DNA of 64,000 bases from assembly GCA_951406725.2 (NCBI GenBank), contig OX597821.1:52824001-52888000 (forward strand). The letters are read 5' to 3'. This DNA is from Octopus vulgaris (taxonomy: Eukaryota). The notes below the pieces were generated by a model. It ran no database searches and was not told the DNA's origin. It saw nothing but the letters and a program-made list of their open reading frames with translations. This document shows, piece by piece, positions 13,290-57,712 of this stretch (its first letter is position 1; each line of letters begins with the position of its first letter). The position numbers and the translations under genes are program-made.

Positions 13290-14975
13290 ATAATATATAT
13301 AAAAACATTAACGAAGGAAGATGCACACACTTTACATAATTTTAATATATTTTTTAATATATTTTATATTGTGTTTGTCGACCAGTTTCGCTTTCGCTAA
13401 TCATGACATTAAAATCATTTTAATTACGTATTCTATTATGATAAATTTGTTTCTCCATGTAGCATGTGGAGCTAATGAATGAATGATTTAACAAGTGTAA
13501 AAATTGAAGGGGAGGTAATTGGTGGCTGTTATGGTTGTGAACAGGGAAATAATTGCTCATCTTCGGTAGGGGGGATATAAATACACAAAAATTCAAAAGC
13601 TAGAGTAGGTGTAGAAATATATACGGTATGTAATCGTGAATTAAAATATGTATAGAGATCAAAGTTGGTTATGCGTGCATATTTAGTTGTGTTCTGTATT
13701 TTTCGGTCAATACATTTTCTTCATTTAAACGTTCTTGTGTAGAAATTATATCTTTGCGCTGGTAGAAGTAGAAAACTGTGAAATTTAGTTTGATGTTACC
13801 TGCACATCTCTCTCTCTCTCTCTCTCTCTCTCTCTCCTCTCTCTCTCTGTTAAATTAAAGTAATCCCTCTGTATTGCGGGAACAGATCTGCTCATTATGT
13901 AGAGTGGTTCTCCATCTCAACGTCATACTCATTTGTCCTTTGTATTTGTGTTCACAACCCGAGCAAGTTACTCCATAAATTAGATTCTCAGAGACACAAA
14001 TGAAGCTGGTTTTTATTGTTAATCTCTCTCCTTGTTTGAAAAGAAAATCCGAGCCTTCAAGTAGATTGGGGCATGTTCCACAGTTTGGGCGTCTACATTT
14101 TTTAACCGTTGGTTTCGTGGTGGTTGTGTAATGCTTCGCCTTTGTCAGGAGTCTCTTTGTGTTGCTTTTAGCATTTGATGAATTTATGCCTTTTCAGGAT
14201 GTTGTTCATTTTTGGGTCTCTAGTTAGTAAAGGAAGATTGTACACAGTAGTTTTGTATGCCTGATTGTTTCTAGGGTTGTAAGTTGATATATACAGTAGT
14301 GTTTTGAGATGAAGTGTGGTGTTATGTTTTGTTGTCCTCAGTGTTTTTATGTCTAATTTTTTGGCACGCTTAATTCCATCGTCTATAAGTGAGAGTGGAT
14401 ACTGTCTTTCGGTTAGTGTTGTTCTGAGTACTTGGAGACGCGGGTCCCAAGTAGTTCTTATACACTATTGTGTAAATCATTTTTGCCAAATTGAAGGGAA
14501 TATTTATTTTGATTTTTTTCGTTTACATAAAGAAACATTATTCAACGAAAAATACAGAACACGTCTAAATATGCACACATAACCAGCTTTGATCTTTATA
14601 CATATTTTTATTCAGGATCAGCTACCTACCACTGTACATATTTCTCCACATTACTCTTGCTTTTGAATTTTTGTGTAAATATATATTCCCACCACCACCA
14701 CTGAAAGATGAACAACCATATCCCCTGCCCACAATAATAACAATCACCAATTGCCTCCTCTTAGATTTTTATACTTGTTGAATCATTCATTCATAAACTT
14801 CACGCACAAAGACAAGACAAACTAATTTTTCTAAATCAAATACGTAATTAAATTATTTTAATGCCATGATGAGCGACAGCTAAACCGGTCGACAAACACG
14901 ATATAAAATATATTTTGAAATATATTAAAACTATGTAAAATGTGTGCATTTTCCTTATTTAATTTCTTATGTATA
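13290..14975 (-). mobile_element. Penelope-like retroelement remnant: RT thumb/GIY-YIG endonuclease fragment with ~440-bp inverted terminal repeats
   Basis: Minus-strand 14515-13670 reads NIPFNLAK, RQYPLSLIDDGIKRAK, STYNPRN, KCRRPNCGTC, CVSENLIYGVTCSGCEHKYKGQ..MTLRWR..LH, ERLNEE...KYRTQLN. Segments 13290-13731 and 14520-14975 are diverged reverse complements of each other. Confidence 0.88.
13376..13408 (-). ncRNA. Minimal hammerhead-like motif in the Penelope terminal repeat (mirror copy at 14862-14894, +)
   Basis: TGTC ATGATTA GC-GAAA-GC GAAAC TG GTC GACA. The location in a Penelope terminal repeat agrees with the established association of minimal hammerheads with these elements. Confidence 0.6.
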
Positions 14976-16609
14976 TTTACATATGTGTGTGTGTGTTTGT
15001 ATGTGTGTACCCACATGACAGTTTCCTTTCATTTGCCATGCATCAATTCCACTCATAGGGCTTTGGTCGGCTCAACGCTTTAGTAGAAGACACGCGACCT
15101 AGGTTCTACGTACGAACTCAGAAACACAGGGGTAGGAAGCAGAGTTCTTGCTACACAACCACACCATCGCTTATGAACTAACTTCTAATCAAGATCTTTA
15201 TTCATTCAAATCCTACATTCTTTCCTGTGGTAGAGTAATATGGAAATGCAGTTCCCTTGTTATGTGAAGCCATCATAAAAAATATTAGAGTTGTAGTTTC
15301 AGTTTTACGAGAGGATTTTCAACTCAGAATTTCCTCGCTGGTAACAAAAGAATTGAGAATATATATATACATTTTGGAATGGAAGGATTTTAATTATATT
15401 ACATTGCGTGTATTCCAGCATTACGAAGGGACAAACATCGCTTACATTATTCAGATTAATAGTCTCAAAACGCTCACTCCAATTCAATTCGACATTTCAA
15501 GCATGTAGATAAAAAAAATGCATATATTCTCATTATGTTTTGTTTTAATATGAAGAAAGTATTCATCTAGAACATTCGATTCAATAATTTTTAAACATTG
15601 AAACTATGTAGATATGCTTCAATATTTCCCTTTTTTTTAAATTTCCATTTCAATATTTCATCCTCACTTTTATTTGTTTATCGCAGTGGTGACACCCGCG
15701 GGGTTATTGAAGAATATATCAAAGAAACACGAAAGTTGGAATTGCGTAACATACCTCTTAGAAACATGGAGATATGCTGGAAAACTGAAATAGCAAAAAT
15801 CGACAATAATTTGATGTTTCTTCTACTTTCAACAACTACTGATTGTTAACATCCCTTCCTCTATACATCAGCAAAAAATATTTAAGGATTGAATACACGT
15901 ATATATGCAGTATCTCGTGAATTCAAGGATATGTATCTTTAATATATATGTAATTCATGCATACATACATGATGGAAGATACGAGAATGTTTATTGATCA
16001 CTACAATTGTTTCGATGCCTCTAGCATCGATTCCTCACGGGTGGGAGAAGACATAACTGATCTAGGTTCATCCGTGAGTGTAGATGTGTCTGCTCAGGTG
16101 ATTACAAGATGTATCTCGTTGAAATAATGTGTTTTCCGCAAGATTCCTTCTGGGTGTGTGTATACAAAAGCAACACATTAAAGGATACAACTTCATTATT
16201 ATAGAAGATCAGTACTAGATATTAGACGCAAAAAGAAACAAATACACAATACAGCGAAGAAAGTATTAGATATAACAGTTAGTAGATATGGATGTATAAA
16301 CGCCGGCGCATATGTATATATATATATATATATATGTGTGTGTGTGTGTGTGTGTGTGTGTGTGTGTGTGTGTATGTGTGTGTACACATACACACATACA
16401 TACATACATATATATGTATATATATACATATATATATAAATATATATATATACATATATATATATATATATATATATATATATATATATATATATATATA
16501 TATATATATATATATATATATAAGAGTTTACGAAAAAACAAAAGACGAAGACAGGTGGTGTACAAAACAAACAGATATATTAGTATAACGCTCAGGAATA
16601 GAAAAAAGT

Positions 16610-16645
16610 CTTTTACGTTTCGAGCCTACGCTCTTCTACAGAAAG
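16610..16645 (-). ncRNA. Variant minimal hammerhead-like motif within a dispersed repeat (~16520-16718)
   Basis: CTTT CTGTAGA A GAGC-GTAG-GCTC GAAAC GTA AAAG. The second copy at 57677-57712 differs at only one position. Confidence 0.55.
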
Positions 16646-17554
16646 GGACACAGAAAAAGCAAGGAGAGAAACAAGGAGAGACAAAAATGTGTGTAGTGGC
16701 TAACGATCTATCATGGCGTATATATATGTTTATGCGTGTGTGTATGTGTAAATGTGTCTGTGACTGCACGTATGTGTGCATGGAAGTTTAGCGAGTTGCC
16801 GGAATCTAGAATGTATCGGATAAATTCTCTGTTAGTATTCGCTCTGATTCGGCATTCTGTGTTCAAGCACACCGAGATAAGCTTATCATTTCCTTCTGTC
16901 CTGGTTGATAAATAAGATACCAGTCCCATACTCGGGGTTCATTCCACCACTTTCTCAATGTGTCTTACACTTTTTCTCTCCGGAATAAATGGGCAGTATC
17001 CTCGGCCAAGAGAGTGGGATGGGCACTGTCATGTTTTAAAATAGCAATGCCTTGTTGCTTTTAACCACGTTGTTCCTACAACTCCATCAACATTAGGAAC
17101 TTTGTATATATTACATTAATATATATATATACGTACTTACATATATTTACATACACATATGTGTGTGTTTATGAGTATATGTGTACATATCTAAATGTGT
17201 TTGTCTATTTGTCTGTTTGATTGTTCTCATTGTCAGGACATGTATATTTGTTTTTGTAACACAGTTTACGTAATATATAGAAATCTACTTATCAAAAGAA
17301 ATTTTTTATCAACTGATCTTGTAAAGTATATTTTTTATTGATTTAGCTTAAAACTTATTTGCGTTGTTGCTAAAATATTAAAAATATGAATAAATCTCGG
17401 TCCTTATCCCTCAAATGTATTTGTCTCTAGGTTCATACAAACTACTTCAACAAATATGGTTACGTAATATGATTAATTCGTGACTTCATTAATGACCTCC
17501 TTGCCCTCTCTACTTTAACCTTAATTTGGCTAAATTTGTGTCAAGCGATGTTGT

Positions 17555-17940
17555 GGGGACAAACACATAAACATACACAAACATACACATACATATATAT
17601 ATATATATATATACGTCGGGATTCTTTCAGTTTCCGTCTACCAAGTCTTCTCACAAGGCTTTGGTAACCCCGAGGCTATAGTAGCAGACACTTACCCAAT
17701 GAGTCATGTAGTGGGACTGAACCTGGAACCATGCGGTTGATAAGCAAGGTACTTACCACACTGCCACTCCCGCGCCTATATATATATATGCGTTTACAAC
17801 CCCGTAACTTAGCGGTTAGGCAAAAGACACCGATAGAATAAATACTAGGCTTACGAAAATAAGTCCCGGAATTGATTTACTCGACTAAAGGCGGTACTCC
17901 AGCACGGCCGCAGTCAAATGATTGAAACAATTAAAAGAAT
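17555..17940. mobile_element. SINE family A halves in opposite orientations: 5' half on minus (17555-17777), 3' half on plus (17790-17940)
   Basis: Sequence identity with the corresponding halves of 54203-54617. The halves are separated by a short (TA)n. Confidence 0.75.
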
Positions 17941-56920: not shown

Positions 56921-57114
56921 TATTTACCCTCCATCCTTATATATACAATCATACATATATATATATATATATATATATATATATATATATATATATATGT
57001 GTGTATACATGTGCACATTTAAGTATATATATGCACACACACACATACTCACATACACACACACATAATAGAAAGCAGAAAGGGAGGAGATATGAATTGA
57101 ATATGCTTATTTAT

Positions 57115-57417
57115 ATTTGGCTCAGTGGTTAGAGCGTCGAGCTCACGATCGTGAGGTTGTGAGCTCGAATCCCGGACCGGGATGTGTGTTGTGTTCTTGA
57201 GCAAGGCACTTTATTTCACGTTGCTGCAGTTCACTCAACTGTAGAAATGAGTTGCGACGTCACAGGTGCCAAGCTGTATCAACCCCTTTGCCTTTTCCTT
57301 GGATAACACTGGTGGCGTGGAGAGGGGAGGCCGGTATGCATGGGCGACTGCTGGTCTTCCATAAACAACCTTGCCCGGACTTGTGTCTAGGAGGGTAACT
57401 TTCTAGGTTCAATCCCA
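57115..57417 (+). mobile_element. tRNA-derived SINE (family C)
   Basis: TGGCTCAGTGGTTAGAGCG (A box), GCTCGAATCCC (B box), core TTGTGTTCTTGAGCAAGGCACTTTATTTCACGTTGCT. Related heads at ~56677-56920 (+), ~31380-31610 (+) and ~24560-24695 (-). Confidence 0.75.
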
Positions 57418-57676
57418 TATATATATATATATATATATGCTAACGAAATAATGATTAATAATTGGACTTACTGGAATTTAACTACATAGGACTATATACC
57501 TAGCCCTTTCTTTTGGTTACTATGAGGTTTGCATCTTGATTCACTGCAGGAACTTACTGTGAGTACCACTGGATTAGGTCAATCCATATATTGTGCAACA
57601 GTGCTGTACCGTTGAACTCTACACAGTTTTTCTCTCTCCCTCTTTTTCACACCCACCCCTTTTTTCTCTCTTAATA

Positions 57677-57712
57677 CTTTCTGTTGAAGAGCGTAGGCTC
57701 GAAACGTAAAAG
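57677..57712 (+). ncRNA. Variant minimal hammerhead-like motif within a dispersed repeat (~57615-57810)
   Basis: CTTT CTGTTGA A GAGC-GTAG-GCTC GAAAC GTA AAAG. Confidence 0.55.

Follow-up and report, generated by a model that had tools for sequence, protein, structure and literature searches.

Penelope-like retroelements carry minimal type I hammerhead ribozymes in their tails, with many families per genome and with solo and opposite-strand copies, as described in PMC4209133. The 56 representatives (by its legend) in Fig. S3 of that paper have only C3-G8, U3-A8 and one U3.G8 pair, always have A6, and include no cephalopod. Here we describe eight hammerhead motifs in a 64,000-nucleotide (nt) stretch of the Octopus vulgaris genome (GCA_951406725.2, contig OX597821.1, here C8:52824001-52888000; hereafter the window), all within the first coding intron of a gene for a natriuretic-peptide-receptor-like guanylyl cyclase. 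Our results suggest that minimal type I hammerheads, several with unusual catalytic cores, ride in the 3' tails of four Penelope-like families and in one retrozyme-like repeat. The reading that we favor, to which we give a probability of roughly 0.85, is that the hammerheads function within tandem transcripts of the elements themselves, trimming the transposition RNA, and after 5'-truncated insertion become inert passengers of the intron. A preliminary description of the window, made from the sequence alone, had listed unrelated hammerhead-like motifs and overlooked that they belong to Penelope-like retrotransposon tails and a retrozyme-like repeat, an association that is published (PMC4209133).

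Two other bodies of work are relevant to this locus. For a Penelope hammerhead, cleavage was described as protein-dependent, with no RNA sequencing (RNA-seq) ends at the site and with inactivation by G8C (PMC11167929). Among retrozymes, those of mussels measure 350-390 base pairs (bp) (PMC7229834; bioRxiv 10.64898/2026.07.22.740005) and those of Xenopus are reported to show modest depletion from introns (bioRxiv 10.64898/2026.07.22.740005). The natural core variants described in PMC3088659 and PMC7151607 are U3-A8 and a rare, slow A6C in a phage.

Hammerhead motifs in the window

All of the motifs in the preliminary description are present and can be read as type I hammerheads. They fall into five repeat families, A to E, and are listed here with a mirror copy of family A.

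13376-13408, minus strand: family A hammerhead, A3-U8 core; 2-bp stem II; stem III ACUGGU; fold complete; sense to the retroelement and to the host pre-mRNA
14862-14894, plus strand: family A hammerhead, mirror; broken by an A3.G8 mismatch and G12U; stem III ACCGGT
15997-16102, minus strand: hammerhead of family E, with a long stem II and ACAAUUGU as stem III; G8C and a stem II mismatch; from its sequence likely dead
16610-16645, minus strand: family B hammerhead, A6U core plus an extra nucleotide; 4-bp stem II; stem III ACGU; fold complete; sense to the pre-mRNA; solo Penelope-like tail
40103-40145, minus strand: hammerhead of family C with a U3-A8 core, ACUAGU as its stem III and a long, extended stem I; stem II, GAGG/CCUC in the family, is broken
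42257-42340, minus strand: family D hammerhead, canonical C3-G8; stem II region of about 60 nt; partial decay in stems II and III; belongs to the inverted 5' copy of the element
42492-42572, plus strand: family D hammerhead, mirror copy; G10.1C; stem III non-palindromic; decayed
57677-57712, plus strand: family B hammerhead, A6U core plus an extra A; fold complete; antisense to the pre-mRNA

Five of the eight copies lie on the minus strand and three on the plus strand, and each family has at least one minus-strand copy, as had been claimed. The fold is complete in three (13376, 16610 and 57677), two of them on the pre-mRNA strand; judged against the family alignments, the other five (the 14862 mirror, 15997, 40103, 42257 and 42492) are decayed. 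The tiny, mostly palindromic stem III segments first reported are correct for the families, since the majority sequence is a palindrome in all five (ACCGGT, ACGT, ACTAGT, ACATATGT and ACAATTGT for A to E), but not for every copy: ACCGGT belongs to the broken mirror, the 13376 copy has the non-palindromic ACTGGT in a family that mostly has ACCGGT, and both 42-kb copies have lost the family D palindrome. Similarly, the 15997-16102 motif, originally called degenerate, is a hammerhead, but it is the G8C decay of a member of a canonical CUGARGA family in which G8 is present in 21 of 27 rows.

To quantify the excess over chance, we used a relaxed descriptor that allows any Watson-Crick 3-8 pair and any N6. 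It gave four matches in the window; 60 local dinucleotide shuffles averaged 0.63 and never reached four. Three of the matches were motifs listed above (13376, 16610 and 57677) and the fourth (53314-53388) looks like background, while 40103, 42257, 42492 and 15997, four of the seven copies first described, failed the descriptor together with the 14862-14894 mirror. A strict C3-G8/A6 descriptor gave no match in the window. In the 864-kb gene span, where a palindromic stem III was also demanded, 24 complete motifs were found versus 0.67, with a maximum of 2, in 12 shuffles; 400 kb of the neighboring plus-strand paralogue held 13 versus 0.0 and 0.1 (10 shuffles each). In these stretches, a comparison with shuffled background, which the preliminary description had proposed genome-wide, shows an excess.

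An origin of the motifs by chance, as matches in the AT-rich DNA of the intron, has a little in its favor, in that 0.63 relaxed matches per window are expected by chance and one of the four observed resembles background. In addition, Rfam gave 290 matches in the window, and the 150 that were listed include no hammerhead family; those listed are below the gathering score and mostly microsatellite artefacts, and such a scan is uninformative for motifs as minimal as these. The excess over shuffles (24 versus 0.67 and 13 versus 0.1), the conservation and compensatory changes within families, and the fixed position behind endonuclease open reading frames (ORFs) described below all argue against chance, which the family-level results refute and to which we attach practically no probability.

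Five dispersed repeat families with variant cores

Window repeats were mapped by masked self-BLAST. Searches of the 2.8-Gb genome with the five motif regions produced 1598, 943, 2492, 1712 and 1522 first-look candidates, of which 40 were scored for each region. Family alignments were built from 20 fetched loci per family, and matches covering less than 45% of the query length were dropped; a later alignment left out identical rows as well as loci that overlap the window, and 21 of 27 rows were retained for family C, six being omitted because they had no gapless fit or were distant. Every motif proved to be part of a dispersed, high-copy repeat, and at the family level all five alignments contain a complete hammerhead.

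The majority sequence of family A has an A3-U8 pair (27 of 29 rows), a 2-bp stem II and the ACCGGT stem III. Family B has CUGUNGA plus an extra A with ACGT, and U6 in 44 of 56 rows, while family C has U3-A8 in 21 of 21 rows, a GAGG/CCTC stem II and ACTAGT. Families D and E have canonical cores and long stem II regions. The minimal type I arrangement (CUGANGA ... GAAA ... UH, three stems, open stem I) is found in D and E and its topology in A, B and C, which lack the strict core (C3-G8 and A6) and are variants of the hammerhead design. The 12 remaining rows of family B form a sister lineage with the canonical A6; this lineage (L237:1240-1280, L186:3738-3778 and others) has a 3-nt loop 2, a compensatory stem I and, in 6 of the 12 rows, U4C.

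We also found G3-C8 hammerheads at L087:3065(+), L152:8962(+), L318:2294(-) and L300:1137(-), the first three belonging to one family (84-90% alike). Together with A3-U8, U3-A8 and C3-G8, all four Watson-Crick 3-8 pairs thus occur in one genome. A 27-nt pattern for the A6U core of family B had 15,730 exact matches in the genome and a 28-nt pattern for family A had 601, with zero for the reversed control in each case. The large repertoire of variant hammerheads that had been foreseen is therefore present, and a strict-consensus search would indeed miss most of it.

The proportion of paired cells was 86% in family A, 94% in C and 95% in B, levels reached by 3, 0 and 0 of 500 shuffles, respectively, although relatedness among the rows inflates this result. 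Pairs with both sides changed numbered 1 in A, 4 in C and 3 in B, which are few events and are likewise inflated by relatedness. When cofolded, a family-typical A copy and a C copy were predicted to form a double-hammerhead dimer joined by the palindrome. Judged from their sequence, the motifs are minimal type I hammerheads and likely dimer-dependent.

It might be argued that the A6U motifs, and perhaps those with A3-U8, are dead or nearly so, that the elements spread without cleavage, and that the fold serves in protein binding or is vestigial. The natural A6C variant is slow in Mg2+ (PMC3088659, PMC7151607), insertion in vitro was described as unaffected by catalytic mutants and hammerheads as absent from some Penelope clades (PMC11167929; bioRxiv 10.1101/2021.04.23.441226), stem II of family A has only 2 bp, and the B copies did not cofold into a palindromic dimer. 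Yet family B varies within the catalytic rules, with all four bases at N7 and A, U or C rather than G at N17 in 55 of 56 rows, while G5, G8, A9, GAAA and U16.1 are kept. Also, the presence of all four Watson-Crick 3-8 pairs among the families is what would be expected if this pair were selected. We consider dead motifs unlikely and favor the reading that A3-U8, U3-A8, G3-C8 and A6U would be lineage traits of master elements rather than products of decay.

Families A, B, D and E in the tails of Penelope-like elements

In families A, B, D and E, the motif lies 250-900 nt downstream of coding sequence for reverse transcriptase (RT) and/or GIY-YIG endonuclease, on the same strand. One example in the window is a family A insertion with three parts, an ORF remnant between two copies of the pseudo-long terminal repeat (pseudo-LTR).

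13292-13731, minus strand: 3' pseudo-LTR of a 5'-truncated Penelope-like element, with the family A hammerhead (self-BLAST and family search)
13672-14519, minus strand: broken C-terminal portion of the Penelope-like ORF, covering the linker and the GIY-YIG endonuclease, with 65-79% identity to the RT and GIY-YIG frame of 635 amino acids (aa) in L127
14520-14977, plus strand: inverted 5' copy of the pseudo-LTR, hammerhead broken (self-BLAST and family alignment)

Inverted 5' copies occur at two window insertions (13292-14977 and 42230-42594) and at many family loci, and 5' truncation does likewise. The L127 locus, a relative of family A, has a 635-aa open frame with hits to RVT_1 (E=1e-6) and GIY-YIG (E=2e-6). 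The end of the ORF was found upstream of the family A motif, in sense, at 17 of 20 loci, and a complete A3-U8 motif was present in 12 of 15 loci fetched with the family A protein. For family B, the motif follows an ORF in sense at L118, L040, C8:52524758 and L292/293. At L118, itself within the receptor intron, the A6U motif comes after a 665-aa open frame (RVT_1 6e-8, GIY-YIG 0.004). A second copy of the element matches it at 96% DNA identity across 2.5 kb, so that family B was active recently. A single ORF with RT followed by GIY-YIG, which characterizes endonuclease-bearing (EN+) Penelope-like elements, is therefore found in both A (L127) and B (L118).

Neptune-type peptides did not detect the ORFs of families D and E, which were found by translating the 5' extensions common to longer copies. 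These encode GIY-YIG-type C-termini upstream of the motif and in sense (Pfam E=0.003 each) and are 34% identical to each other. Counting the query locus, 9 of 30 family D loci have the endonuclease remnant upstream in sense, at about 570 nt from the motif in longer copies. In family E, it was upstream at 29 of 30 loci, as follows from the way the query was built; 27 of the 30 have the motif, and the distance is about 400 nt. The coding sequence reached in D and E consists of GIY-YIG-type C-terminal remnants only, the copies examined being too short for RT. A Cys-rich linker before the endonuclease suggests, by the description in bioRxiv 10.1101/2021.04.23.441226, elements of the Neptune/Nematis type. 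An ORF beside L098 was considered as the partner of family E and rejected, as it is inverted and has no E tail after it.

Related elements were seen elsewhere in the genome. The G3-C8 motif of L087 is about 700 nt downstream of a GIY-YIG remnant. L231:3745-6087(+) represents a young Penelope-like family with an intact 781-aa RT and GIY-YIG frame in many copies, relatives of which have a downstream U3-A8 hammerhead with ACATGT as stem III. A further Penelope-like family, with U3-A8 and ACCGGT, lies antisense to the host gene at C8:52212291-52218758 (L176/L177), where an inverted-plus-tandem insertion contains a near-complete ORF with a hammerhead on each side, the two being on the same strand and separated by 4.4 kb.

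A retrozyme-like repeat, family C

The family C motif lies in a repeat of a different kind.

39934-40407, minus strand: family C repeat, one unit of about 362 bp and a head-to-tail extension of about 110 bp; non-coding, retrozyme-like

The family C unit is non-coding, with a length of 361-363 bp and 43-46% GC; its single type I hammerhead has an extended, long stem I. We examined 20 loci, the best of 2492 candidates, and 14 of the 20 were longer than one unit, with inverted 5' pieces in 12. The monomer folds strongly, with circular-fold z values of -3.4 to -6.0 in five of five copies tested. By these sequence features, family C seems to work like a non-LTR retrozyme.

Among assembled contigs from four sequencing runs that were compared with the unit, a single 396-nt contig in run X5, possibly of RNA origin and with a depth of about 188, spans roughly one unit of a relative of family C from a different organism. 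It would be equally consistent with a circle and with a tandem, and we have not used it as evidence.

The giant intron and the fate of sense copies

The position of the motifs relative to the host gene was determined by mapping P0001 (atrial natriuretic peptide receptor 1, Octopus bimaculoides).

62092-62806, minus strand: first coding exon of the natriuretic-peptide-receptor-like guanylyl cyclase, with an ANF_receptor domain; 95% identical to P0001
1-62091, minus strand: belongs to the host receptor gene's first coding intron, of which it is a part (P0001 exon mapping)

The ORF at 62063-62806(-) encodes the ANF_receptor domain with 95% identity to P0001, and on 864 kb of contiguous sequence P0001 mapped to 17 collinear minus-strand exons, all of them intact. 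Exon 1 ends at window position 62092 and exon 2 is at C8:52598329-52598438, with no exons between them in this mapping. The first coding intron is thus 287,653 nt long (C8:52598439-52886091, GT..AG, phase 1). From the exon mapping, all motifs lie within one intron, as originally described, and the minus strand is the sense of the pre-mRNA.

The preliminary description had suggested that these motifs could cut long introns co-transcriptionally, and had proposed intronic strand bias as a check. Were complete motifs to cleave nascent RNA often enough to be costly, they would be expected to be scarce on the sense strand. Using 37 complete motifs in two genes on opposite strands (1.264 Mb), we found 13 sense and 11 antisense motifs in the receptor gene and 5 sense and 8 antisense in its plus-strand paralogue. 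There is no strand bias in the pooled data (18 of 37 sense, p=1.0, 95% confidence interval 0.32-0.66). By homology, the five families have 19 sense and 17 antisense copies, of which 9 and 6 are complete. The density of exact A6U copies in these genes (13 in 1.264 Mb, or 10.3/Mb) is no lower than that of the genome as a whole (5.6/Mb). The window has just two complete sense copies, which come from different families and differ in stem III; for the one at 16610, the closest complete copy of its family and strand is about 157 kb distant. With neither bias nor depletion on the sense strand, and with decay in most copies of the window, co-transcriptional intron cutting is not supported.

Sense copies could still cut the nascent receptor pre-mRNA at a relevant rate, as monomers, as trans-dimers or with the element protein, and so modulate genes with long introns. 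The receptor gene has 13 complete motifs on its sense strand, the 15,730 exact A6U copies could provide plentiful partners in trans, cleavage of the Penelope hammerhead is protein-dependent (PMC11167929), and conserved hammerheads exist in amniote introns (PMC6155905). The absence of bias and depletion speaks against such cutting, as do the intact state of all 17 mapped receptor exons and the decay of five of the eight window copies; moreover, a minimal motif was described as having no monomer activity and low dimer activity (PMC4209133), and the lack of RNA-seq ends at the cut site was noted above (PMC11167929). We therefore regard cutting of the receptor pre-mRNA as very unlikely. Equally improbable in our view is the combined reading that the A6U, A3-U8 and G3-C8 cores are active and that intronic sense copies are cut in trans, by dimers with repeat transcripts or by an element protein, resulting in genome-wide, transposon-dependent clipping of the nascent RNA of long introns. 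If true, it would be a genome-wide and transposon-dependent route acting on very long introns. A part in the processing of host pre-mRNA would be of much greater consequence than the reading that we favor, but has no support in this analysis.

The region around the host gene has other features of note. A cluster of at least six first exons of receptor guanylyl cyclases with very long introns occupies C8:50.68-53.58 Mb, and intronless-looking paralogue copies with frames of about 1700 aa are found on C12. Within the window, 4739-7806, 21320-21453 and 37170-37652 are copies of one dispersed repeat family, and 17617-17941, 39300-39676, 47246-47594 and 54216-54616 of a second, both probably similar to short interspersed elements (SINE-like). 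Remnants of non-LTR retrotransposon ORFs lie near 8784-10276 and 55006-55383.

Proposed role of the hammerheads

In the reading that we favor, two hammerheads in an element's tandem transcript would pair through the palindromic stem III, or would be aided by the RT-endonuclease protein, and cleavage after N17 would trim the transposition RNA. In family C, cleavage would release a monomer that could then be circularized. Dimer formation and cleavage are inferred here by analogy with described systems (PMC4209133, PMC6765202, PMC11167929). After insertion, selection would cease and the copies would decay, as five of the eight in the window have. A lone intronic copy would cut the receptor pre-mRNA rarely or never, because it has no partner in cis.

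Several results weigh against this reading or temper it. None of the seven window copies folded clearly better than shuffles as a monomer (z -1.8 to +2.2). The covariation in families A, C and B consists of a few subfamily-level events, with pair-type counts not above shuffles. The palindromic dimer was predicted for just two of nine natural copies cofolded, with both B copies and all three D copies pairing otherwise. For B, D and E, the Pfam GIY-YIG score stays under the curated threshold, and the family D endonuclease retrieved no homologue when used as a query. For family C, a peptide match tied a Penelope-like ORF to the repeat at none of the 20 loci, and a full head-to-tail dimer was present at none of them. 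Finally, the 37 motifs in two genes are a small sample, with which a mild strand bias is compatible.

Comparison with known systems

The hammerhead-in-Penelope system itself is known, and the octopus motifs share most of their properties with those of PMC4209133. These include the type I topology, a short stem I, a tiny palindromic stem III, an additional nucleotide that separates position 9 from 10.1, and G10.1-C11.1, as well as location in pseudo-LTRs, mostly as solo truncated copies, with opposite-strand pairs, unrelated families and a U3-A8 variant. They also resemble the variant hammerheads described in PMC6765202 in their reduced palindromic stem III, Penelope association and predicted dimer cleavage. 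Similar to amniote intronic hammerheads such as that of RECK, they are type I motifs inside a long intron; the amniote examples are single and conserved, whereas those of the octopus are multicopy, decaying and on either strand (PMC6155905).

Family C shares with the metazoan non-LTR retrozymes of PMC7229834 and bioRxiv 10.64898/2026.07.22.740005 a non-coding unit of about 361 bp, a type I hammerhead with a long stem I, insertions of more than one unit and a strong monomer fold. It differs from them in its U3-A8 core and in having no full tandem dimer among the 20 loci, and it is known here from DNA alone.

The unusual catalytic cores (family-wide A6U, A3-U8 and G3-C8) may be new. Among the papers listed in literature searches we found no report of these cores or of octopus hammerheads, although the closest and largest survey of variants (Lunse et al.) was outside the comparison; the main text of an octopus repeat-annotation paper (PMC13282606) has no occurrence of the word hammerhead. 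We would give about even odds that these family cores are both unreported and active. Variant-core families beside canonical-core sisters amount to a natural experiment that could enlarge the range of sequences known for the active site of the hammerhead, and they are ready test cases for whether Penelope elements need hammerhead cleavage at all. They also indicate how badly strict-core surveys undercount, a single 27-nt A6U pattern accounting for 15,730 exact copies.

Compared with the list in PMC4209133, the octopus families are set apart by A3-U8, G3-C8 or U6, by the 2-bp stem II of family A, and by the 60-80-nt stem II regions of families D and E. With the variants described in PMC3088659 and PMC7151607 they share 3-8 covariation and a pyrimidine at position 6. 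Unlike the single phage example of A6C in those papers, U6 is fixed in a recently active octopus family with at least 15,730 copies.

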